Shown here piece by piece: positions 1,132 to 54,826 of a DNA stretch of 54,826 nt (position 1 is the stretch's first letter; every line of letters begins with the position of its first letter). A program made the translations under genes and the position numbers. The notes beneath the pieces are model-generated. The model had not been told where the DNA came from, ran no database searches, and was given only the letters and a program-made list of their open reading frames with translations. This DNA comes from a virus (Duplodnaviria > Heunggongvirae > Uroviricota > Caudoviricetes): IMG/VR virus record IMGVR_UViG_2687453585_000002. One strand, written 5' to 3'.

Positions 1132-1357
1132 CTTCCAGTATCCTCTTCAAAGCAGGGTGATCTGTGGCGATCACCTCCGGCTTGTTTACCATTCCGACAA
1201 AGCGAGCTTGCGGATCCACTCGCCAGCGTCTTCCAACTTTTTTGGGGAGAGGAAATATCATTCCGGCTTTAGCGTATTTACTTAACGTACTCGGAGTTGG
1301 GACCGGTTCACTGAATTCCTCTTTTGCCCACTCAGTGAGCAGAATAAGTCTTGCCAT
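1109..1357 (-). CDS. excisionase-like small DNA-binding protein
   Basis: 82-aa ORF immediately upstream of and overlapping int start by 23 nt (classic xis-int arrangement); basic helix-rich sequence. Confidence 0.5.
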   Translation of the reverse strand: MARLILLTEWAKEEFSEPVPTPSTLSKYAKAGMIFPLPKKVGRRWRVDPQARFVGMVNKPEVIATDHPALKRILEDGAPAKI

Positions 1358-1421
1358 GAGCGTCGTTCGCTAATCATGGTCGCCGCCACTATAGCTGGTG
1401 GGCAACGACCGGGGTTGAACA

Positions 1422-3893
1422 TTAAAAATCAGCCTGATTCGGGATCAGTTTTTGCCAGATAACTGAAACGTATTTTGCCTGGTAACGGGCGTCATCAAGT
1501 GCATTATGGCGCTCACCTTCGAATGGAATAGCCGTTCTGGCATCGAAGTCTATGGCTTTCCCCAGCTCAACGATTGTGCGTACATCGCGATCGTTGTAGT
1601 AACGCCATGGGCAGGGGATCCCCTGCCGTTCGTATGAACGGCGCAAAATCGTGTTTTCGAAGTTGGCTCCATTTCCCCAGACCTGAACAAAAAATTCACC
1701 GGAGTTTTCGTCGATAAATTCCCGCAATTGTAACAGTGCATCATCTAACGGGATTTCATCGGTCATAATGGCAGACTGCGCTTCACGTGATTGCTTCAGC
1801 CACCTTTTAATGACGTCACGATCAATGACTCCGCCAGCAGTTTCCAGATCGATAGTCTTACTAAATTCCGGTCCCATATCTCCGGTTTGCGGATCGAAAA
1901 ATATTGCATCTATTGAGATAATCGGGGCATCAGGATTTTTTCCCATGGTTTCAAGGTCAATCATCAGATGGTGCCACAACCTGCTGGTGGATGTGCTTTT
2001 ACGATGACTGTTCACCTTAATTAAGGGATTTGCTGTCTCGCCTATTTCATTATTGTCATTGGCATGTTGATCGCCTTCGGTGCACTCCTTGTTCGGGAGT
2101 CCGGCATTTTCTATTTCCTCTGGATCTTTTTCCCGGGCTTCATCCTGGCTTTCTTCGTTGAATGTCTCCTGGTAGGTTGCGTCACCCATCACTGCGCCAC
2201 AATCAGGGCAGTTACCACCACCAGTCTGATTGCATGCGGTACAAACTTTTTCCTCTTCCTGTTGCACGACTGGTTCAGGTTGTTTCGTTTCTGGCTCGTT
2301 TTGTAACGCATTTTGGCTGTTTTGTTCCGCTTTTTGGTCGTACTGTTCCGTTTCTGACTGGTTCTGGTGCACAGAATCGCGGGTTTCAATCCCCTTCACC
2401 CATTTCGGATCATTCGGGTCGCTAATCCCTTCAACAAATTCACCACGTGATGCAGCGAGCAACTTATTAGCGTCAGGCTGGCTGATACTGGCTGCCTGCA
2501 TAATTTTGTTTACTTCGTCAGCGGTAACTTTTACCAGGTCTGGTTGTGCGGTCGTGTCAGATGCATCAGTATTTTGTTGTGAACCTGTGTATGTGCCGTT
2601 TTTGCGGGCAAAATATTCTTCTTTCGTGATTTCAGTTGCCCCGGCAGCCAGCGCCTTATCCAGACCAGAAAGTTTGTTTGCGCGACCGTATTTTTCGCCA
2701 TCCTTGTCGGTGAAGAGGAAGTAGAACGGCCCCTCACGCTCTACAGATGGTTCGACTTCCACTTTGCATTCGGTTTTTTCGTTGTCCGGAATTGCCGTTT
2801 CCACTGCATCAGTTTCTGGTACTGGCGACGAGAGAGTATCAGTTGCGCTCTGATTTCTTCCTTCATCTTCAAACACGCCCTTTGTAGTCAGGTATTCAGT
2901 AATGTATTTGTTCAGTGCCACAGGGTCTTTGTGAATGTCGATCGGACGTTCACGGACAAGGCCAAAAATAGTCTGGCGGTCGTAGCGAAGGGCATCAGGC
3001 TGTTTGCGCATTGATGCCGAGATACGCTTCCAGTCTTCGCGGTCGTTGTCGATAACTTCATTTTTTGCCCAGCGATGGATGCTGCCGTCAATGTTTCCGG
3101 CATCCACATCACCAGGCCAGAGAGCGTAGGCCAGTTCGTCATCCAGTGTTTTCCATGTCTGCTTGTATTCGCGATGAATGGCAGCAATGACCGGGCTGAT
3201 TTTTCCTGTTGAATTTTCAGTGTACTGTTGATTGGCTCTGGCGCGGGCGAGATCAACAACAGACGTGTATTTTCCGGTTTCCTTGCGTTCACCTTCACGA
3301 CGTTTTTTCCAGATGCGCATCTCTGCCTGAATTTCGGGCCATTTGGCACCAGGCTTACATTTATGCTTAACCCACCCGATGGCATGCAGCTTAAGCTCCG
3401 GATACATGGCGTTAACTTCTGGCATTTTCATCAACGCTTCAACGATATGTCCGTCGAATGTTGCCATGTCTTCCTGCAACAATTCCTGTGCGCTAATAAC
3501 CATATCAACGGTGATGTTTTCACATGTGTCGAACTTAACCATGACAGCGTTCTGTACTTCAGGGGCCAGCTTGTCAAAAGTGACGTTCATCGGATCGGAT
3601 TCAGTCTCAACCGGGACAAAGGAAGCAGACTCCTCATCCCAGCGGTTTTCCTGCATATATTCAGCATCCCAGGAATCGAGGGCAGGGCGGGGTATACCGG
3701 GTTTATCCTCGCAGACAAGAAATTTATAAGCGCAGTCCTGAGCAGCCGGATAATGTTCCAGGAATTGCCAGTGAAATTTTGCGCGGGCGCGACGTTCATC
3801 ACCGGCTTCAATGGCAGTGGCTACAGCGACGGCACCTTCTTCCTTTATTGCCTGTTCGTCCGGAATGGCGGCGCAAATAAAGACTTTACTCAT
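1422..3893 (-). CDS. putative exonuclease, C-terminal DnaQ-like (DEDDh) 3'-5' exonuclease domain with large N-terminal domain
   Basis: 823-aa ORF; C-terminal 'LMIDLETMG...' and '...HNALDDARYQAKY' motifs resemble DEDDh exonucleases; internal CxxC...CxxC zinc-ribbon-like motif (CTACNQTGGGNCPDCG). Confidence 0.6.
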   Translation of the reverse strand: MSKVFICAAIPDEQAIKEEGAVAVATAIEAGDERRARAKFHWQFLEHYPAAQDCAYKFLVCEDKPGIPRPALDSWDAEYMQENRWDEESASFVPVETESDPMNVTFDKLAPEVQNAVMVKFDTCENITVDMVISAQELLQEDMATFDGHIVEALMKMPEVNAMYPELKLHAIGWVKHKCKPGAKWPEIQAEMRIWKKRREGERKETGKYTSVVDLARARANQQYTENSTGKISPVIAAIHREYKQTWKTLDDELAYALWPGDVDAGNIDGSIHRWAKNEVIDNDREDWKRISASMRKQPDALRYDRQTIFGLVRERPIDIHKDPVALNKYITEYLTTKGVFEDEGRNQSATDTLSSPVPETDAVETAIPDNEKTECKVEVEPSVEREGPFYFLFTDKDGEKYGRANKLSGLDKALAAGATEITKEEYFARKNGTYTGSQQNTDASDTTAQPDLVKVTADEVNKIMQAASISQPDANKLLAASRGEFVEGISDPNDPKWVKGIETRDSVHQNQSETEQYDQKAEQNSQNALQNEPETKQPEPVVQQEEEKVCTACNQTGGGNCPDCGAVMGDATYQETFNEESQDEAREKDPEEIENAGLPNKECTEGDQHANDNNEIGETANPLIKVNSHRKSTSTSRLWHHLMIDLETMGKNPDAPIISIDAIFFDPQTGDMGPEFSKTIDLETAGGVIDRDVIKRWLKQSREAQSAIMTDEIPLDDALLQLREFIDENSGEFFVQVWGNGANFENTILRRSYERQGIPCPWRYYNDRDVRTIVELGKAIDFDARTAIPFEGERHNALDDARYQAKYVSVIWQKLIPNQADF

Positions 3894-44116: not shown

Positions 44117-44496
44117 ATGCGTAAATTATGTGCTGTTATTTTGTCCGCAGTAGTCTGGCAGGTCGCCGCTGCTACGCCAGCGAGTGCAGCAGAACATCAG
44201 TCCACGCTGAGCGCGGGGTATCTCCATGCCTCGACGAACGTTCCCGGTAGTGATGATCTGAACGGGATTAACGTGAAATACCGTTATGAGTTTACGGACG
44301 CGCTGGGGCTGATTACGTCCTTCAGTTATGCCAATGCTGAGGATGAGCAAAAAACGCGCTACAGCGATACCCGCTGGCATGAAGATTCCGTGCGTAACCG
44401 CTGGTTCAGCGTGATGGCGGGGCCGTCTGTACGCGTGAATGAATGGTTCAGCGCGTATGCGATGGCGGGTGTGGCTTACAGCCGTGTGTCGACTTT
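44117..44496 (+). pseudogene. lom: lom-like outer membrane protein gene, 5' fragment (interrupted by IS)
   Basis: signal peptide plus Ail/Lom-family beta-barrel sequence up to ...AYSRVSTF, then IS terminal repeat. Confidence 0.75.
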
Positions 44497-44689
44497 TGCG
44501 TATTTTCATGAAAGGAGATCACTCAATAACTTCCATCGAGATCGGGTAATAACATTTGAACAGATCGCTGAATAACATCGATGGAGATCACTTTTGACTC
44601 ATTTTGTTATTCAGTGATCTCCATCAATGTTATTGGAACTTCACAGGTGTGTTGATCTGTATCTTTTGCCATTCCGGTAAAGGATACCT

Positions 44690-46231
44690 ATGCCAACAGT
44701 TCCAATTTCTATGAGAAAACTTAAAGAAATTCTTAGGCTTAAATACGGTGTTGGACTCAGCCATCGACAAATTGGTCGTAGTCTTGCAATCTCCCCTTCC
44801 GTTGTATCCAGATATGCTAATCGGGCGGCTCAACTTGGCATAAAGCAGTGGCCCTTACCTACAGGATGGGATGATACAAAACTAAAACATGCGTTCCTTC
44901 AGACCCAGGTTAAGATGAAGAAGCACTCTCTGCCTGACTGGGCTACAGTACACCGGGAACTGCGTAATAAATGCGTGACGCTGCAGCTACTCTGGGAAGA
45001 ATACTGTGAGCGTAATCCAGGCGGTTTTTACAGCTATAACCATTACTGCCGGATGTACCGTGAATGGCTCAAAACCACTTCACCATCAATGCGTCAGGTA
45101 CATAAAGCTGGCGAAAAACTTTTCGTTGATTACTGTGGACCTACCGTTGGCGTTACCGACCCTGAGACCGGAGAAATAAGAACTGCTCAGGTCATCGTAG
45201 CTGTTCTCGGGGCATCAAGTTACACATGGGCAGAGGCCACCTGGTCTCAGCAGCTTGAAGACTGGGTGATGAGTCATGTTCGCTGCTTCCAGTGGTTGGG
45301 TGGCGTTCCTGAACTTGTTGTTCCGGACAATCTGAAAAGCGCCACATCCAGGGCATGTAAGTATGATCCTGACGTTAACCCTACCTACCAGCAGATGCTT
45401 GAGCATTATAATGTCGCAGTTTTGCCTGCGCGGCCACGTAAACCGAAAGATAAAGCCAAAGCTGAAGTTGGCGTTCAGGTTGTTGAACGCTGGATCATGG
45501 CCCGAATCAGGCATGAGATCTTCTACAGCCTTGCATCGCTTAATCAGCGCATTCGGGAGTTGCTGGAAAGACTGAATAACAAAATAATGCAGAAGTTGGG
45601 TTATTCACGTGCAGAACTCTTCATCCAGCTTGATAAACCCGCACTGAAGCCTCTTCCTGAAGCCAGTTACAGTTACACCCTGGTGAAGAAAGTCAGAGTT
45701 CATGCCGATTACCACGTGGAAATCGACAAACATTACTACTCGGTTCCATGTTCGCTGTTAGGCCAGCAACTGGAAGCATGGATCTCCGGAGAACTGGTAA
45801 GACTCTTCAATCAGGGGCAGGAGGTTGCTGTGCACCCGCGCAAGCGTACTTATGGCTACAGTACCCGCAACGAGCACATGCCTGAAGCTCATCGACAGCA
45901 TGCCACCTGGACGCCAGAGCGTCTTCTGGAATGGGCGGGGCACATAGGCAGTGAAACTCATAGTTATGTGCTTCATATACTGAACTCTCGTCCACATCCG
46001 GAACAAAGCTATCGCTTCTGCCTTGGACTCCTGAACCTTCATAAAAAATACAGTAAAGCCAGACTTAATGCAGCATGTGCAAGAGCTCTGAAAACAAAGG
46101 TATGGCGTCTGTCAGGTATTAAATCGATCCTGGAAAAAGGTCTGGATAAACAACCTGTTCAGGATCCAAAACCAGATCTGTTATCCACGATGGAACACGA
46201 AAACGTACGCGGCAGTGAGTATTACCACTGA
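44690..46231 (+). CDS. istA: IS21-family transposase IstA
   Basis: 513 aa; N-terminal HTH; DDE core. Confidence 0.8.
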   Translation: MPTVPISMRKLKEILRLKYGVGLSHRQIGRSLAISPSVVSRYANRAAQLGIKQWPLPTGWDDTKLKHAFLQTQVKMKKHSLPDWATVHRELRNKCVTLQLLWEEYCERNPGGFYSYNHYCRMYREWLKTTSPSMRQVHKAGEKLFVDYCGPTVGVTDPETGEIRTAQVIVAVLGASSYTWAEATWSQQLEDWVMSHVRCFQWLGGVPELVVPDNLKSATSRACKYDPDVNPTYQQMLEHYNVAVLPARPRKPKDKAKAEVGVQVVERWIMARIRHEIFYSLASLNQRIRELLERLNNKIMQKLGYSRAELFIQLDKPALKPLPEASYSYTLVKKVRVHADYHVEIDKHYYSVPCSLLGQQLEAWISGELVRLFNQGQEVAVHPRKRTYGYSTRNEHMPEAHRQHATWTPERLLEWAGHIGSETHSYVLHILNSRPHPEQSYRFCLGLLNLHKKYSKARLNAACARALKTKVWRLSGIKSILEKGLDKQPVQDPKPDLLSTMEHENVRGSEYYH

Positions 46232-46242
46232 TACGGGATCCA

Positions 46243-46992
46243 ATGATGAATCATCTTTACGAACAACTGACCGCACTTAAACTCACCGGCTTCCGTGATG
46301 CGCTTAAAAAGCAACTTGCTCAACCGGGCACATACCAGGAGCTGGGCTTCGAAGAACGCCTGTCATTACTGACAGCAGAAGAACTAACCTGCCGTGAAAA
46401 CAGGAAGGCAGAGCGTCTGATCAAACATGCACGGTTCAGACTTAATGCTGAGTTATCAAAGCTGGATTATCGTAACAATAGAGGGCTGGACAGGGCCCTC
46501 ATCCGTTCACTCAGTCAGGGAAACTGGTTAACCCTGAAACAAAATATTTTACTGACCGGGGCCACCGGCAGCGGTAAAACGTTCCTGGCATGTGCACTTG
46601 GTCATAATGCCTGCCGACAGGGATACAAGGTCTACTATTATCGCCTTAAAGCGCTGATGGAACAGTGCTATCAGGGGCATGCTGATGGAAGATACAGCAA
46701 ACTTTTGACCAGGCTGAATAATAGCGATCTGCTGCTTCTGGATGACTGGGGGCTGGAACCTCTCTCATCAGAACAGCGTAGCGACCTGCTGGAAATAGTG
46801 GATCTGATGTACCAACGAGGCTCAATCATCGTAGTGAGCCAGTTGCCGGTGGAAAACTGGTACAAAATGATCGGAGACTCCACACATGCGGATGCCATCC
46901 TAGATCGACTGGTTCATGGCAGTATCAAGATCGAACTTAAAGGAGAATCAATGCGGAAAATACAATCTCCGTTGACCGAAGGAGATCAGTGA
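46243..46992 (+). CDS. istB: IS21-family helper ATPase IstB
   Basis: Walker A GATGSGKTFLA and Walker B LLLLDDWG. Confidence 0.85.
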   Translation: MMNHLYEQLTALKLTGFRDALKKQLAQPGTYQELGFEERLSLLTAEELTCRENRKAERLIKHARFRLNAELSKLDYRNNRGLDRALIRSLSQGNWLTLKQNILLTGATGSGKTFLACALGHNACRQGYKVYYYRLKALMEQCYQGHADGRYSKLLTRLNNSDLLLLDDWGLEPLSSEQRSDLLEIVDLMYQRGSIIVVSQLPVENWYKMIGDSTHADAILDRLVHGSIKIELKGESMRKIQSPLTEGDQ

Positions 46993-47078
46993 AGGTAATT
47001 TAAAAACGGTTCTGTGAAAGTGACACGAACCGATCTCCATCGATGTTACTCACCGATCTCCTTCACGGTAATACGCAA

Positions 47079-47453: not shown

Positions 47454-50360
47454 ATGACAGTAAAAATTTCTGGCGTGCTTAAAGATGGCACAGGAAAACC
47501 AGTACAGAACTGCACCATTGTGCTGAAGGCCAGACGAACCAGCAGCACGGTGGTGGTGAACACGGTGGCCTCTGAAAATCCGGATGAAGCCGGACGTTAC
47601 AGCATGGATGTTGAGCATGGTCAGTACAGCGTCACCCTGCTGGTTGAAGGTTTTCCGCCTTCACATGCCGGGACCATTACCGTCTATGAAGGTTCCAGAC
47701 CAGGTACGCTGAATGATTTTCTCGGTGCCATGACGGAGGATGATGTACGACCGGAGGCACTGCGCCGCTTTGAGCAGATGGTAGAAGAGGTGTCACGTAA
47801 CGCCTCCGCGGTTGCACAGAATACGGCAGCCGCGAAAAAATCAGCCAGCGATGCCAGTGCATCAGCCAGCGAGGCGGCAACTCATGCAACCGATGCTGCA
47901 GCCTCATCACGTGCCGCCAGCACGTCAGCCGGACAGGCCGCGTCGTCGGCTCAGTCAGCGTCTTCCAGCGCAGGAACGGCATCGACAAAGGCCCGTGAAG
48001 CAGCAAAAAGTGCTGCTGCTGCAGAGTCATCAAAAAGCGCGGCAGCTACCAGCGCCAGTGCCGCGAAAACGTCAGAAACGAATGCCGCAGCATCACAAAA
48101 ATCGGCAGCCACTTCTGCATCCACAGCGACCACGAAGGCGTCAGAAGCTGCCACCTCGGCACGGGGTGCGGCGGCCTCAAAAGAGGCAGCGAAATCTTCA
48201 GAAACGAATGCATCATCAAGTGCCAGTAGTGCAGCTTCCTCGGCAACGGCGGCAGGAAATTCCGCGAAGGCGGCAAAAACGTCCGAGACGAACGCTAAGT
48301 CTTCTGAAACAGCAGCGGGACAGAGCGCCTCAGCTGCGGCAGGTTCAAAAACAGCGGCTGCATTATCTGCCAGTGCCGCGTCAACAAGTGCCGGGCAGGC
48401 CTCAGCCAGTGCCACCGCCGCCGGAAAATCGGCAGAAAGCGCCGCATCATCCGCTTCAACAGCCACAACGAAGGCTGGCAAAGCCACTGAGCAAGCCACT
48501 GCAGCAGCGAGGTCTGCTTCTGCAGCAAAAACCTCTGAAACAAATGCAAAGACTTCAGCAGACAATGCTGCTTCCTCTAAGGCGGCAGCCGCATCGTCAG
48601 CCAGTTCAGCGGCGTCATCGGCATCATCTGCGTCTGCTTCAAAAGATGAGGCGACCAGACAGGCGTCAGCAGCAAAGGGCAGCGCCACGACGGCATCCAC
48701 GAAGGCGACAGAGGCAGCTGGCAGTGCGACGGCGGCAGCTCAGAGCAAAAGTACGGCGGAATCCGCGGCAACGCGCGCCGAGACAGCGGCAAAACGGGCA
48801 GAGGATATTGCATCCGCCGTGGCGCTTGAGGATGCGAGCACGACGAAAAAGGGGATAGTACAGCTCAGCAGTGCGACCAACAGCACTTCCGAGTCACTGG
48901 CGGCAACGCCAAAAGCGGTTAAGGCGGTAATGGGTGAAACGAACAAGAAAGCGCCCTTAAATAGTCCTGCACTGACCGGAACGCCAACAACACCAACTGC
49001 GCGACAGGGAACGAATAATACCCAAATCGCAAGCACGGCTTATGTTATGGCTGCGATCGCTGCCCTCGTGGACTCGTCGCCTGACGCACTGAATACGCTG
49101 AACGAGCTGGCTGCGGCGTTGGGCAACGACCCGAATTTTGCGACCACCATGACTAGCGCGCTTGCGGGTAAGCAACCGAAAGATGCCACCCTGACGGCGC
49201 TGGCCGGGCTTGCTACTGCGGCAGACAGGTTTCCGTATTTTACGGGGAATGATGTTGCCAGTCTGGCAACCCTGACAAAAGTTGGGCGGGATATTCTTGC
49301 GAAATCGACCGTTGCCGCCGTTATCGAATACCTCGGTTTACAGGAAACGGTAAACAAGGCTGGTAACGCCGTTCAGCGTTCCGGCGATAAAATGACCGGA
49401 GAACTGAAAATTGGCACGGTGAATGCGCTGCGAATTTTCAATGATGCCTTCGGTCTTATTTTCCGTCGTTCAGAAGATTTTCTTCATTTCATTCCGACGG
49501 CTGAAGGACAAGGCGAAAACGGTGATATCGGCCCATTAAGGCCATTCGCTATAAATCTGAGAACAGGTGCTATATCTGTCAGCCACGGGGCCAAAATTGA
49601 TGGTGGGCTGGCGCTTGGTACAGATAACGCACTGGGCGGTAATTCCATTACTCTCGGAGATAACGACACTGGTATTAAACAGGGCGGCGACGGTGTCCTT
49701 TTATTCTATTCAAATGGACAACTGGCATTTGGGCTTCAACCCGCATCTGCTGATTTTTATAAGCGGGTTGCATATATTCATCAGGGAATAATTCCTGATG
49801 GAAGTGGCGCATTTGCAGACCAGTTGAATAATGCCACCGCGCCTTTTGTTCAGACGCAGTTTGCCTGGAATCCCACTCCTGGTGGTCTTTACGTGCCGAT
49901 AGTTAAGGGCTTGTCCATTCGCAATGGACAGGGCTATCCCGGCGCGGTCAGCTTTGGGTATTTACTGACAGAACAGTATGGATTTCCGGTTCCATGTATT
50001 CATATGCGTGGCGATGGCGGTAATGATGCTTTATGGCAGTTTAACCCGAACGATAAATCCTTTATTTCACCGGGTGCTCTTATTGCGGGTGGCGTCCGTT
50101 ATAACACCGATGGAAATATATTTGGTGGGTGCTGGGGGTCAAACTTAAATGATTACCTGAATAGTTCTTTTATCAGAAATGTGCGTCTGGGAGGCAGACG
50201 TTCTGACACATTATATCGCGGAGGACTTTGCGAACCAGGTAATGGTCATGTGACAACAGGATTGCAAATTATTGGTGAGGTTGATGGAGATGACTGGATG
50301 GTGTCACGACCACTACAAAAATACATTTCTGGTAACTGGTATAACGTTGAACAGGCATAG
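47454..50360 (+). CDS. stf: side tail fibre protein (Stf-like) with Ala/Ser-rich repeat shaft
   Basis: 968 aa; long low-complexity A/S/T-rich region; C-terminal receptor-binding part lies within invertible segment. Confidence 0.8.
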   Translation: MTVKISGVLKDGTGKPVQNCTIVLKARRTSSTVVVNTVASENPDEAGRYSMDVEHGQYSVTLLVEGFPPSHAGTITVYEGSRPGTLNDFLGAMTEDDVRPEALRRFEQMVEEVSRNASAVAQNTAAAKKSASDASASASEAATHATDAAASSRAASTSAGQAASSAQSASSSAGTASTKAREAAKSAAAAESSKSAAATSASAAKTSETNAAASQKSAATSASTATTKASEAATSARGAAASKEAAKSSETNASSSASSAASSATAAGNSAKAAKTSETNAKSSETAAGQSASAAAGSKTAAALSASAASTSAGQASASATAAGKSAESAASSASTATTKAGKATEQATAAARSASAAKTSETNAKTSADNAASSKAAAASSASSAASSASSASASKDEATRQASAAKGSATTASTKATEAAGSATAAAQSKSTAESAATRAETAAKRAEDIASAVALEDASTTKKGIVQLSSATNSTSESLAATPKAVKAVMGETNKKAPLNSPALTGTPTTPTARQGTNNTQIASTAYVMAAIAALVDSSPDALNTLNELAAALGNDPNFATTMTSALAGKQPKDATLTALAGLATAADRFPYFTGNDVASLATLTKVGRDILAKSTVAAVIEYLGLQETVNKAGNAVQRSGDKMTGELKIGTVNALRIFNDAFGLIFRRSEDFLHFIPTAEGQGENGDIGPLRPFAINLRTGAISVSHGAKIDGGLALGTDNALGGNSITLGDNDTGIKQGGDGVLLFYSNGQLAFGLQPASADFYKRVAYIHQGIIPDGSGAFADQLNNATAPFVQTQFAWNPTPGGLYVPIVKGLSIRNGQGYPGAVSFGYLLTEQYGFPVPCIHMRGDGGNDALWQFNPNDKSFISPGALIAGGVRYNTDGNIFGGCWGSNLNDYLNSSFIRNVRLGGRRSDTLYRGGLCEPGNGHVTTGLQIIGEVDGDDWMVSRPLQKYISGNWYNVEQA
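49321..49346. repeat. DNA invertase crossover site (left inverted repeat) within stf
   Basis: TTATCGAATACCTCGGTTTACAGGAA is the near-perfect reverse complement (22/26) of the site at 52402-52427. Confidence 0.7.
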
Positions 50361-51468: not shown

Positions 51469-52416
51469 TTAAACGCTCGCTACATTATACCAGGTGCCAT
51501 TTATATACTTTTGAACGGGTCTGTAATAAACGCCCGCTATATTATCGGCAGAGTTAGACCCTGTATCCTGAACATTAATACCAGACAATACATGACCTGA
51601 AGGGCACTGGAAATTCCATGTTTGCCAGTTGTTCACTCCATAATATTGCTGTGAACCAAGTCGAACATCTTTCACATAACGGGAATCAAAGTTACCGTAA
51701 TCCGAGGGGTTAACACGCCCTGTAATATTTATGGTTTTATTACTTTGAATGCTTCCGGAGACAAAGCGCATAACATGGACGTTATTAGCATAAACATCCA
51801 GATTACCATCGCCATTTTGTTTAAAGCCCGTGTCATTATCACCCAATACAATCGAATTACCGCCAAGAGCACTGGATGTTCCGATACCCAGTGCACCATT
51901 CAGTTGACCACCAGATAACGGCAGTGCACCAACATCTCCTGCTGAAGGCTTTCTGGTGGTGGTGTAAAATTCGGACCAGTCGGCTTCAAAACCATAACCA
52001 TCACGGGCTGAACGATAAAAAATACCGCCATTTTTATAATTAATCCGAAACTGAGCTGCAGGACAACTTCCTTCTCCCATATAAAAATGAATAATTAACG
52101 TTGATGCACCACTAATAGTTGCGTTATAGGCTCCGCTACTCCAGTTCCATCCAACTGCTTTATCATTCGCAACGGTGCTTCCTGTTTTCCCTAAGGCAAA
52201 CGCACCAACATGACTTGCTTTTAATGTGATATCGGAGGAACCATCAAAAGCCACATTGCTTATTTTCCTGGCAGTTTTTAATTTTGCAGCTGTAGAAGCA
52301 TTGCCGGATAGTTCACCAGAAAGGCCACCGCTGAATGTTTGTCGATTAGTCCAGGTATTCGCTGTACTGAGTAACGGTATTTTCTCCCCGCTTGTGCCGA
52401 GTTCTCGTAAACCGAG
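51469..52416 (-). CDS. alternative tail-fibre C-terminal segment (promoterless, fused to stf on inversion)
   Basis: frame open from the crossover site (stop TAA lies inside site at 52420-52422); shares ALGGNSIxLGDNDTG block with current stf C-terminus. Confidence 0.65.
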
Positions 52417-52427
52417 GTTTTAGATAA
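52402..52427. repeat. DNA invertase crossover site (right inverted repeat)
   Basis: TTCTCGTAAACCGAGGTTTTAGATAA; partner of 49321-49346; just upstream of pin remnant. Confidence 0.7.
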
Positions 52428-52481
52428 TGGCGGTTTCTGGCCTGCATGGCATGATTTGTGCTTTTGGACGGGAGATTCAGC

Positions 52482-52740
52482 GTGCTGATTGGCTATGTAA
52501 GGGTATCAACAAATGACCAGAATACAGATCTGCAACGAAACGCTCTTGTTTGTGCAGGATATGAACAAATATTTGAAGATAAATTAAGCGGAACAAGGAC
52601 AGGCCGACCTGGATTAAAACGTGCTTTAAAGCGCCTTCAAAAAGGTGACGCACTGGTTGTCTGAAAACTGGACTGACTGGTTCACTGTATGCGGCATCTT
52701 GTCGTGCTGGTGGTGGAAGCCTAGAAAAAGTATCGGGTGT
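52482..52740 (+). pseudogene. pin: Pin/Gin-family serine DNA invertase, decayed
   Basis: N-terminal LIGYVRVSTNDQNTDLQRNALVCAGYEQIFEDKLSGTRTGRPGLKRALKRLQKGDALVV intact, then TGA where Trp is expected and further stops; replaced after ~52728 by a tfa 3' fragment. Confidence 0.7.
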
Positions 52741-52860
52741 TACTGAACCGTGTTGATACATCAACTGCACCTGATATTGAGTGGCCTACGAACCCTGTCA
52801 GGGAGTAATCATTGGGATTATGCCGCAGCACGTCTTAAGCAAGAACGTGCTGCGGTTGGA
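52728..52860. repeat. ~130-bp direct repeat (copy 1), tfa 3' end plus hairpin
   Basis: about 88 percent identical to 53780-53910; encodes ...[26 protein letters not shown]. Confidence 0.7.
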
Positions 52861-52862
52861 TG

Positions 52863-53531
52863 CTATTTTTTCCCTGAAGCGGAAAACATTACTACAGTAC
52901 CTTGAACCTTGGTTTTAACATTCTCGAAATGCTCTGAGAGTATATGTGTTAAGCCTTCTTCGGAATCTTTTGTGTTTGAAAAGATGCCTTTCTGATTGTA
53001 AATGCGCATCAGTTTTTGACCGAAGCTATTGTGCACAACTCCATCGCCAAGAATTGTGGCTCCGTATAGAGTTCCATCGTCAGTTAAGGCCTGCGCCGCA
53101 TTGCGTATTACACAGCTTTTTGTAGATATATTTCCAGGCAGGCAGTGAAGAAGGTAAAACATGGAAATGGAATCAAATTGACCATGTAACGCCGCGGGAT
53201 AAGGTTCAAAAACATCATGGCTAATTTTATGTTTAATTTTTGATTCCCCAGCCCTTGTAGATGCCGCGTTCAGGCTAGCTTCGTTCAAATCCATTAAAGA
53301 TATCAGACTACTCTCAGGTACGTGAGTAAGGTAAAACCCAGTTCCAACACCAATATCCAGATGGTTGTTACCTACATGTTCCAGAAAGTGTGGAAGAAGG
53401 TGTTCCTTTGTAGGACATCCCCATGCAAGCCGATTTGATACTCCCAAAACCCACCAGTCATAAAGCTTTAGGGTAAGTGGTGTGTAAATTTTAGCCCCAT
53501 CATCTGTGTTTTTTTTCATTGATTTCACCAT
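52863..53531 (-). CDS. class I SAM-dependent methyltransferase
   Basis: 222 aa; motif I LDIGVGTGFY; AT-rich relative to neighbours; flanked by ~130-bp direct repeats. Confidence 0.6.
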   Translation of the reverse strand: MVKSMKKNTDDGAKIYTPLTLKLYDWWVLGVSNRLAWGCPTKEHLLPHFLEHVGNNHLDIGVGTGFYLTHVPESSLISLMDLNEASLNAASTRAGESKIKHKISHDVFEPYPAALHGQFDSISMFYLLHCLPGNISTKSCVIRNAAQALTDDGTLYGATILGDGVVHNSFGQKLMRIYNQKGIFSNTKDSEEGLTHILSEHFENVKTKVQGTVVMFSASGKK

Positions 53532-53587
53532 GTTATAGTTTTATTTGTGAATTAAATCAATTATGGCGATGAATTACAAGGGGTTAA

Positions 53588-53857
53588 ATGCTGCCGCAGC
53601 ATAGCGATATTGAAATAGCCTGGTATGCTTCGATACAGCAGGAGCCGAATGGCTGGAAGACCGTCACCACACAGTTCTACATCCAGGAATTCAGTGAGTA
53701 TATTGCGCCACTGCAGGATGCTGTAGATCTGGAAATCGCAACGGAGGAAGAAAGATCGTTGCTGGAGGCATGGAATAAATATCGGGTATTGTTGAATCGT
53801 GTTGATACATCAACTGCACCTGATATTGAGTGGCCTGCAAATCCTGTCAGGGAGTAA
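53588..53857 (+). pseudogene. tail fibre assembly gene fragment (C-terminal part only)
   Basis: 89-aa ORF ending ...[31 protein letters not shown]-terminal half of a Tfa-like protein without N-terminal half. Confidence 0.5.
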
Positions 53858-53910
53858 TCATTGGGATTATGCCGCAGACACGTCGTATGCAGGAACGTGC
53901 TGCGGTTAGT
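53780..53910. repeat. ~130-bp direct repeat (copy 2)
   Basis: partner of 52728-52860. Confidence 0.7.
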
Positions 53911-54268
53911 TTGTGAGCTTTCGATAGTGGTTGTTATTTTTGCCCTTATTTGTTCCGGAGGCCATGGTTCAATGGTCCGTCTGCCCCCTGTGGTGATGTC
54001 AGCAAAATCAGCCACTGCGCGAACCACAATAGCCCGGGAAGATGCTGAAGATCACCAGGTAAAGCTGTCAGCGCAGAAACTGGAAGAACTGCTCGCATCA
54101 ATGGTTAAGGATGAGGTTGATCGCAATGATGGGATTTATTGACGTCAGCGAGAGCAGAAGGAAGAACTGAATAACCTGAATGATTTACGCTCAATCAGAG
54201 CGATGGCGATTAGCGGCAATCACGCTCGATAAAATTAACCCCGGTGATCATCCGGGGTTTTGCATTCA

Positions 54269-54826
54269 TTAAAACCGCATCAACCTTTCCACCAATTGTT
54301 CTTTACGGGCAACGATCCACCCATGTTGCTCCAGATAAAATTTAAACCGTTCCAGCGTGCATACCATCGCATCGGCGGGGACTTTTTCTGTGAACTCGAC
54401 CTGACCGTGTTTATCGAAGTGGATCAGTAATGCGCATCCATTATTTGGGGCGGGGGAGTTTTGTGCTGCAGGAGGACGTTTGTGGAGTTCTTCTTCCATT
54501 GCGTTAAATTTTTCAATGTAAGCTTCTTTTAGTCTGGCTGCTTTTTTGCCAGTAAATCCCATTACGAGGAACATGAAGCCGTCTTTTGTGATCAGGTAGC
54601 ATCGTGATTCACGTTCTGCGCCGTTGCCAATTTCGACAGTCTGAACATCGGCCGAAAAGTTGGCTGATGTAAATTCGGGAGAGCAGTCGAGTGTGTCAAT
54701 CTTAGCTAAAACGTGTTTATGTTGTTTATCGAAGTAGTCGGCAACAGCTTGAGAGGTGGTAACCAGGCGACCATCTTTGAAAAAGACTTTTGGTGACTCG
54801 TTAGAAAAAGTTATAGCTGTATTCAT
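54269..54826 (-). CDS. Rha-family phage regulatory protein
   Basis: 185 aa; N-terminal VTTSQAVADYFDKQHKHVLAKIDTL resembles Rha N-terminal domain; start ATG is the last 3 nt of the window. Confidence 0.6.
   Translation of the reverse strand: MNTAITFSNESPKVFFKDGRLVTTSQAVADYFDKQHKHVLAKIDTLDCSPEFTSANFSADVQTVEIGNGAERESRCYLITKDGFMFLVMGFTGKKAARLKEAYIEKFNAMEEELHKRPPAAQNSPAPNNGCALLIHFDKHGQVEFTEKVPADAMVCTLERFKFYLEQHGWIVARKEQLVERLMRF

Follow-up and report, generated by a model that had tools for sequence, protein, structure and literature searches.

The closest described counterparts of the locus analysed here come from Escherichia coli prophages and from lambdoid phages. In the DLP12 prophage of E. 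coli K-12, the tail-fibre-assembly gene tfaD (b0561) precedes an opposite-strand pseudogene, ybcY (b0562), after which comes tfaX (b0563). The records of phages PhiR26_1 and PhiR68_2 name the same gene 'putative uncharacterized protein YbcY'. Phage lambda has a single tfa end, directly followed by its b region, and no such gene. Passenger genes of this kind are reportedly covered by the moron concept of Juhala and Hendrix, whose classical lambdoid cases are said to include lom, bor and the morons of HK97 and HK022. Here, we examine the equivalent locus in a lambdoid prophage of 54,826 nucleotides, IMG/VR virus record IMGVR_UViG_2687453585_000002 (the whole of which we call the window), where the opposite-strand gene is intact and is predicted to encode a class I S-adenosylmethionine (SAM)-dependent methyltransferase. 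Taken as a whole, the locus is likely to be a lambdoid ybcY cassette, that is, a self-contained, host-derived moron located downstream of the side-tail-fibre genes. Annotations of the cassette already exist for K-12 and in phage entries, and nothing about it is new at the level of the element.

The ybcY cassette and its flanking tfa ends

On alignment, the window gene is the intact orthologue of the DLP12 pseudogene ybcY. Its open reading frame (ORF) aligns both with b0562, at 99% DNA identity, and with phrog_2132 (E=4.2e-157, residues 5-222 against profile positions 1-218 of 218). The synteny is also that of K-12, with a tfa 3' end, an opposite-strand ybcY and a truncated tfaX; the genes, their order and orientation, the hairpin and the AT-rich spacer are all shared with DLP12, at 97-99% DNA identity from 52711 to ~53765-53834. 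The two loci differ in the state of the gene, since K-12 ybcY has lost its Met5 start through a 2-bp deletion in an A run and carries a few substitutions including F125S, whereas the window copy is intact. They also differ in their surroundings: a long tfaD stands on the left in K-12, against 98 bp fused to a pin pseudogene in the window; the K-12 tfaX 3' end is a different tfa allele; and downstream K-12 continues into appY-ompT, whereas the window has a tail-fibre fragment, Rha and the ompW attachment site. PHROG 2132 and PHROG 2341, the latter matched by the tfaX-type ORF, are both families of unknown function.

The initial annotation had suggested that the protein may resemble YmfD of prophage e14, a likeness that does not survive comparison. 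YmfD is also a putative SAM-dependent methyltransferase, of ~221 residues, from an E. coli cryptic prophage, but BLASTP places it at E=15 and DNA alignment gives no real similarity, ruling it out as a homologue; its gene adjoins ymfE and lit at the integrase end of e14, away from tail-fibre genes. By contrast, the description of the gene as an AT-rich, 222-residue class I SAM-methyltransferase on the opposite strand is well founded. The ORF passes the Pfam cut-offs for Methyltransf_12 (37.5 bits against a cut-off of 30), Methyltransf_23, Methyltransf_25 and Methyltransf_11; motif I reads D59-I-G-V-G-T-G65, with D81 as the acidic residue of motif II; and its G+C content is 41.1% in a window of 51.9%, the 56-bp spacer upstream being lower still (see the table of features below). 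Of the two candidate starts, Met1 (53531) and Met5 (53519), the second is probably the true one (ATG at 53519-53517), giving a protein of 218 residues. Homologues from other genera begin at the Met5 position, and the Enterobacter homologue has CAAGGTG in place of the window's CATGGTG and no ATG at the Met1 position; together these observations favour Met5, with GGTGA as its predicted ribosome-binding site.

The gene lies between two direct repeats, 52711-52857 and 53760-53907, which are identical at 131 of 148 positions (88.5%) in a global alignment, in line with the ~88% first reported for them. They fall into two blocks separated by a 1-bp indel (52711-52828 against 53760-53877, 89%; 52829-52857 against 53879-53907, 90%), and a 39-nt core identical in both copies occurs nowhere else in the window and in none of 100 shuffles. 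The extent originally given to the element, 52728-53910, is right overall, its left edge falling ~17 bp short. In each copy, ~32 terminal codons of a lambda-type tfa are followed by the stop codon and a G+C-rich hairpin, in agreement with the tfa-end-plus-hairpin structure first described, and both copies align with the 3' end of lambda tfa.

The tfa sequences on the two sides have different histories. On the left, the remnant is non-coding in the window, with an internal TAG in place of TGG, and corresponds to the end of a full-length tfa in E. coli 55989, in K-12 (tfaD) and in phage PhiR26_1; in these three genomes the repeat reaches ~227 bp (53681-53907 against the tfa end, 88.5-89.9% identity). 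On the right, the repeat opens with the last ~98 bp of the tfaX-type ORF, which matches phrog_2341 over its full length at 4e-61 and is labelled partial tfa by the Prokaryotic Genome Annotation Pipeline (PGAP). Tfa homology in this ORF begins only at ~53668-53681, the first ~30 codons being of other origin, and tfaX is frameshifted or shortened in K-12 and phage 2G7b. Thus, the right tfa looks like a decaying remnant.

The left hairpin folds at -28.6 kcal/mol (z -3.96) on the plus strand and at -25.4 kcal/mol (z -3.63) on the minus strand, and it is conserved after lambda tfa with one compensatory change, from A-T to C-G. It is common to the convergent tfa and methyltransferase transcripts and is probably a terminator or RNA-end element. 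The right hairpin is nearer the lambda version than the left one, lambda sharing its bulged form and its GGTTAGTT tail, and a terminator scan lists it in part (53888-53904). Both repeats are ~85% identical to the last ~220 bp of lambda tfa. Because lambda has the tfa end and the hairpin without the gene, it can be regarded as the 'empty site' of the cassette, and phages HK629 and HK630 are like lambda in this respect.

Searches of the junctions for tRNA genes and known RNA elements found nothing except sub-threshold Rfam matches. IS009 (RF02111), a candidate small RNA (sRNA), matches 53611-53814 on the plus strand at 112.5 bits, below its gathering score of 117 and within the tfaX coding sequence, and matches the left remnant (52686-52765, plus strand) at 43.5 bits; this 'sRNA' family appears to be tfa coding sequence. 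The left hairpin region (52792-52854, plus strand) matches CssrB, a Shigella chromosomal sRNA, at 32.6 bits against a gathering score of 76. A 45-residue ORF from PGAP at 52781-52918 (plus strand), which extends over the tfa stop codon and the hairpin into the 3' part of the methyltransferase gene, is called 'hypothetical protein' in RefSeq (WP_001309429) and 'nucleocapsid protein' in a K-12-like strain; it is probably spurious, most simply a by-product of tfa coding sequence and hairpin.

At the left border, the tfa remnant is fused to what is left of a Pin/Gin-type serine invertase gene, pin, which has an in-frame TGA at 52662-52664 and has lost its 3' two-thirds. Homology to K-12 pinE can be followed as far as ...GTGCTGGTGG, and that to tfa from TGGAAGCC onwards, with ~3 bp of shared microhomology at the joint (~52708-52713). 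Judged by these alignments, the joint is an illegitimate deletion that trimmed tfa to 98 bp and fused it to the dead pin; the left tfa remnants of phages 2G7b and ev243 are truncated at other points. Since the left repeat is joined to pin by a microhomology deletion, it does not derive from homologous exchange in the window.

The spacer between the divergent methyltransferase and tfaX genes is a candidate promoter region. In genomic SELEX (systematic evolution of ligands by exponential enrichment) with K-12, the ybcY/tfaX spacer was among the constitutive RpoD promoter sites, bound by the holoenzyme in vitro, with predicted ybcY hexamers TTGATT-17-TATAAC and the site marked 'HNS' (PMC3946193). 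These hexamers map in the window to 53560-53555 (TTGATT) and 53537-53532 (TATAAC), and a consensus scan gives a second candidate promoter, TTAACC-16-CATAAT at 53587-53560, that matches the consensus at 9 of 12 positions. Autonomous expression of the gene is plausible: we propose that a sigma-70 promoter of its own, within the AT-rich spacer, would drive leftward transcription without dependence on the late operon, that H-NS probably damps this transcription, and that the transcript would end at the shared hairpin.

The moron-like character first proposed for the gene is borne out by its own upstream region and downstream hairpin, its atypical G+C content and its presence or absence between related phages, lambda, HK629 and HK630 being without it. 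Like the classical morons, the cassette places an extra gene of atypical composition between conserved modules, with a candidate promoter region of its own, a hairpin and a patchy distribution. Unlike them, it is bracketed by duplicated ends of a structural-gene family, and the autonomy of the window allele is predicted.

Mosaic boundaries and prevalence

The unit that recurs in many E. coli prophages and isolated lambdoid phages is ~1 kb long (~52820-53812) and comprises the hairpin, the gene, the spacer and the truncated tfaX, at 97-99.5% identity amid differing neighbours. On its right, similarity to K-12 ends at ~53765 by our reading of the alignment (53834 by BLAST), and phages 2G7b, ev243 and PhiR26_1 and E. 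coli O157 break off at 53812, with different tfa 3' alleles beyond; the points ~53765 and 53812 both lie inside the right repeat. On its left, the boundary falls at 52711 in the window, at 52735 in ev243, ~25 bp further left in 2G7b and at 52817-52823 in O157 and PhiR68_2. These comparisons mark two places, the tfa 3' end and the position immediately ahead of the hairpin, as boundaries at which mosaicism recurs. The combination of a 97-99.5% identical cassette, differing flanks and breakpoints in the tfa 3' end or by the hairpin supports modular exchange. The earlier proposal of recombination at tfa ends, for which a comparison of the junction across related prophages had been advised, is thus upheld on the right, where breakpoints fall inside the repeat and the flanks differ, but not for the window's left repeat, which is a deletion joint with pin.

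We propose that conserved tfa 3' ends and the hairpin act as portable homology, at which homologous recombination would swap the cassette and tail-fibre modules among lambdoid genomes. A single Campbell-type crossover at a resident tfa end, with a circular or linear donor carrying a tfa end plus the gene, could produce the repeat-flanked layout. In the ancestral layout, that of 55989 and PhiR26_1, the left repeat is the end of a working tfa, which the deletion then cut back in the window. A transposon-like or site-specific insertion is ruled out, as the repeats are 148-227 bp of diverged coding sequence and neither terminal inverted repeats nor a transposase are present.

The arrangement is not peculiar to this prophage but is the usual E. 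coli setting of ybcY. With a threshold of 95% identity, 3841 of 5426 complete E. coli genomes (~71%) contain the gene, the median copy number being one and the maximum four. The tfa end, hairpin and gene 3' end, which make up the left junction, are contiguous in 3066 genomes, and the gene 5' end, spacer and tfaX, the right junction, in 3436.

Within this shared setting, the flanks vary. The ompW prophage of E. coli 55989 carries stf, a full-length tfa, the methyltransferase, tfa' and a DUF4376 tail-fibre fragment, and is 99.4% identical to the window over 52711-54220. Four phages (PhiR26_1, PhiR68_2, 2G7b and ev243) carry the hairpin-methyltransferase-spacer-tfaX unit at 97-99.5% identity directly downstream of side-tail-fibre genes, and all diverge from the window at 53812-53834. 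PhiR26_1 has the order Stf, full Tfa, YbcY, Tfa', hydrolase and OmpT, and so, unlike the window, keeps a full working tfa on the left, while 2G7b and ev243 (Nesevirus) have their own, different tail-fibre modules, followed by a short, differently truncated tfa remnant, the gene, tfa', a hydrolase, OmpT and Int. In K-12 and in strain ABU 83972, the cassette sits in DLP12 remnants beside ompT. Other genes may also stand between tfa and the cassette hairpin, namely pin and ynaE in PhiR68_2 and, after the tfa stop codon, katN and yciEFG-like genes in O157:H7.

In the segment of O157:H7 strain 1130 that we examined, the katN, yciE-, yciF- and yciG-like block occupies positions 1290-3503. A recent capture of this block from the E. 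coli ompW neighbourhood is unsupported: it is 74% identical to the chromosomal yciEFG that flanks ompW in 55989, and it is therefore a diverged paralogous block.

Enzyme family and alternative explanations

The methyltransferase belongs to a large bacterial family. A word-index search returned 2296 homologues, the best-scoring of them in Enterobacterales, and an exhaustive profile search gave 415 clusters (at 50% identity) below E=1e-30, with members that include Francisella and the flavobacterium Aureivirga; the source names of ten distant clusters were all generic. Homologues with 56-68% identity were compared in six genera. Those of Salmonella, Enterobacter, Yersinia and Erwinia stand alone on the chromosome as single genes without adjacent phage genes, whereas the Aeromonas homologue lies between transposase genes and that of Testudinibacter beside genes of an AlpA-containing mobile element. 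No neighbouring gene is common to these six chromosomal contexts. Similarity to the Enterobacter chromosomal homologue (69% DNA identity over 52892-53581) includes ~50 bp upstream of the ORF. From these homology patterns, we conclude that the gene most plausibly came from a bacterial chromosome and brought its upstream region with it. The Testudinibacter sp. homologue (57% identical; segment 5001-6589) stands at the end of its element, directly beside an intact ompW, and ompW is the integration gene of this prophage family in E. coli; the adjacency may be coincidence.

An alignment of Enterobacterales proteins reveals a conserved N-terminal segment, Y-x-P-x2-L-x2-YDWWVL-x3-N-x2-AW-x-C, in addition to motif I, D81-x-N, H105-D, DS-x-S-x2-YL-x-HCL-x-G and YN-x-KGIF-x-N-x2-D. 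Across the wider family, the invariant residues are Y24, W37, H57, G61, D81, S121, H129, G157 and D189, and the window protein retains all of them. An AlphaFold (AF2) model with a predicted local distance difference test (pLDDT) score of 89.8 predicts a Rossmann-type fold with a seven-stranded beta-sheet. The best structural neighbours of the model, PmtA, JHAMT, SgvM, BelI/CysG, MM_2633, PsmD and Coq5, are small-molecule or lipid methyltransferases. The nearest solved structures (MM_2633, 3dtn; BelI/CysG, 9fce and related entries; PmtA, 8ys9; JHAMT, 7ec0; SgvM, 8ftr) share 12-21% identity with the protein at TM-scores of 0.55-0.67, with a flat ranking. Sequence searches of the PDB with the single protein and with two profiles aligned the SAM-binding core alone, to JHAMT, UbiG, NodS and CysG/BelI, and in the alignments displayed, the N-terminal signature motif of the family aligned to no solved chain.

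The profile and structure searches that had been recommended for placing the protein in a subfamily thus lead to small-molecule and lipid methyltransferases, and they reach no curated NCBIfam subfamily: the protein scores far below threshold for CpaM, RquA and PmtA, the cut-off of the PmtA model included, and 55 distant relatives give scattered matches to BioC, UbiE and UbiG. The gene is conserved yet is not a characterised housekeeping methyltransferase, and the initial statement that its substrate cannot be read from the sequence holds for profile and fold searches too, which gave no assignment. Published work on ybcY, tfaX and tfaD and on three RefSeq protein accessions offers no functional data apart from the SELEX promoter listing, its other mentions being negative or incidental. 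We predict that the product is a cytoplasmic, stand-alone class I SAM methyltransferase of small-molecule or lipid type, whose target would be a ubiquitous host metabolite or a xenobiotic; DNA or the tail fibre would not be expected as its target.

Could the enzyme instead act on a macromolecule, whether on DNA (for restriction protection or epigenetic marking), on tRNA, on rRNA or on protein? We think this unlikely, because the top matches in both sequence and fold are small-molecule or lipid enzymes. The 222 residues contain no (D/N/S)PP(Y/F/W) motif, indeed no PP dipeptide, and no PCQ/ENV motif, PCQ itself being absent; a protein of 218 residues leaves no room for a target-recognition domain; and no DNA methyltransferase is among the top fold or sequence matches. 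No restriction or specificity partner adjoins the gene in the at least ten contexts examined, the PADLOC anti-phage defence models gave nothing significant, and none of the RNA-methyltransferase models in NCBIfam matched above its cut-off. A functional tie to the tail-fibre genes, in which the enzyme would modify Stf, Tfa or the cell-surface receptor and its position would reflect its function, strikes us as hardly credible. It would account for the near-constant presence of ybcY beside tfa sequences in E. coli, but the gene runs on the strand opposite to theirs and has an upstream region of its own, the six chromosomal contexts share no neighbour and four of them are without phage genes, the gene survives in ABU 83972 where stf and a working tfa are lost, and other genes intervene between it and tfa in O157 and PhiR68_2. 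Moreover, the model is a compact, soluble Rossmann fold in which no signal peptide or membrane segment is evident.

Signs of decay are plain at several of these loci. K-12 ybcY is a pseudogene through the deletion in its Met5 start region, and also has F125S; truncated variants include clusters of 161 residues (445 members) and 130 residues; tfaX carries frameshifts in K-12 and 2G7b; the spacer bears the mark 'HNS' in the SELEX table (PMC3946193); and the window prophage has degenerated too, its pin being dead and its lom interrupted by an insertion sequence (IS) element. Even so, it seems quite improbable to us that the cassette is a functionless relic, a silenced and slowly decaying passenger of no use to lysogen or phage. 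The intact 222-residue form is by far the commonest, its cluster at 90% identity holding 6589 member sequences; every family-invariant residue is kept; the gene is intact and >99% identical in the isolated phages 2G7b, ev243 and PhiR26_1, whose genome space is limited; and it persists in heavily deleted DLP12 remnants that have nearly no phage genes left (ABU 83972). We put forward as speculation, with low confidence, that YbcY proteins may be enzymes of lysogenic conversion whose methyl acceptor is a lipid of the host envelope or a central metabolite. One example would be N-methylation of phosphatidylethanolamine, hinted at by PmtA as the top Foldseek match of the model; another could be methyl-esterification of a carboxylate, by analogy with BelI/CysG and JHAMT. 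Such a role, if true, would explain why the gene is intact in isolated phages and kept in gutted DLP12 remnants.

Several points weigh against our preferred explanation, a self-contained, host-derived ybcY moron exchanged at tfa ends. The left hairpin has no canonical U-tract on either strand, and the terminator scan did not call it. It was with the K-12 allele, and by SELEX in vitro, that the promoter was detected, and the published -10 hexamer abuts the first ATG, leaving little or no leader for the Met5 GGTGA, so that the true transcription start is uncertain. Activity, SAM binding and expression of the window copy are predictions. Inactivation or truncation has affected the gene in K-12 and in certain other strains, so that selection on it may be weak, and E. 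coli and phage alleles differ by too few substitutions for a test of selection that compares synonymous with non-synonymous changes. Finally, several of the left joints are illegitimate deletions, making homology-driven spread only part of the cassette's history.

The surrounding prophage and the significance of the cassette

The table collects the features of the locus.

Features of the ybcY cassette and its left border, in window coordinates
Feature	Position	Strand	Basis or remark
pin (Pin/Gin-type serine invertase) pseudogene, N-terminal third only	52458-52710	+	Pfam Resolvase N-terminal domain, 4.6e-15
Left tfa 3'-end remnant, 98 bp, ~last 32 codons	52711-52808	+	former TAA stop at 52806-52808
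Left hairpin, G+C-rich stem of 11-12 bp, probable terminator or RNA-end element	52822-52856	both	fold and conservation in lambda
ybcY-type class I SAM-dependent methyltransferase ORF (predicted)	52863-53531	-	222 residues at its longest; 669 bp
AT-rich spacer between divergent genes, candidate methyltransferase promoter	53532-53587	-	26.8% G+C
tfaX-type truncated tail-fibre-assembly ORF, 89 residues	53588-53857	+	Caudo_TAP, 6e-25, residues 31-86
Right post-tfa hairpin with one-base bulge	53871-53905	+	-24.2 kcal/mol, z -1.89

Positions 52400-54300 of the window are 100% identical to E. coli genomes of sequence type 131 (ST131) such as EC958, where the prophage adjoins a truncated ompW gene and the trp operon, and where PGAP labels the locus as partial recombinase, partial tfa, class I methyltransferase and partial tfa. 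To the left of the cassette, the tail-fibre region is a Pin/Gin-type invertible segment made up of stf, tfa, an inverted tfa' and an inverted stf', with pin beside it. A gix-like 26-bp crossover site, TTCTCGTAAACCGAGGTTTTAGATAA, lies at 52402-52427 on the plus strand, and a partner crossover core in inverted orientation lies inside stf at ~49328-49339 on the minus strand. Since pin is dead, the segment would be locked unless an invertase comes in trans.

Downstream of the right repeat are a tail-fibre/DUF4376 gene fragment with an internal stop (53861-54142, plus strand) and a Rha-family regulator gene (54269-54826, minus strand), with an Ash-family regulator gene beyond the window; the 55989 prophage, at the same site, is without the Rha/Ash block and continues directly into the ompW remnant. 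Further left in the window, lom (of the Ail/Lom family) is split at ~44117-47000 by the IS21-family element ISEc12 (istA, istB), as annotated in EC958, whose sequence is identical here; the insertion is a further sign of a degraded prophage.

For annotation, the K-12 counterpart of the gene is DLP12 ybcY, not e14 ymfD, and its likely start is Met5. More broadly, the setting of the cassette is one more example of a well-known mosaicism, in which lambdoid genomes exchange modules at the ends of their tail-fibre genes. Were YbcY proteins lysogenic-conversion enzymes, their activity would alter membrane or metabolic properties in most E. coli lineages and lambdoid lysogens. What gives the gene its interest is its spread: ybcY, a member of a large bacterial family of putative methyltransferases, is among the most widespread passenger genes of E. 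coli prophages, being present in ~71% of complete genomes and also in isolated phages.

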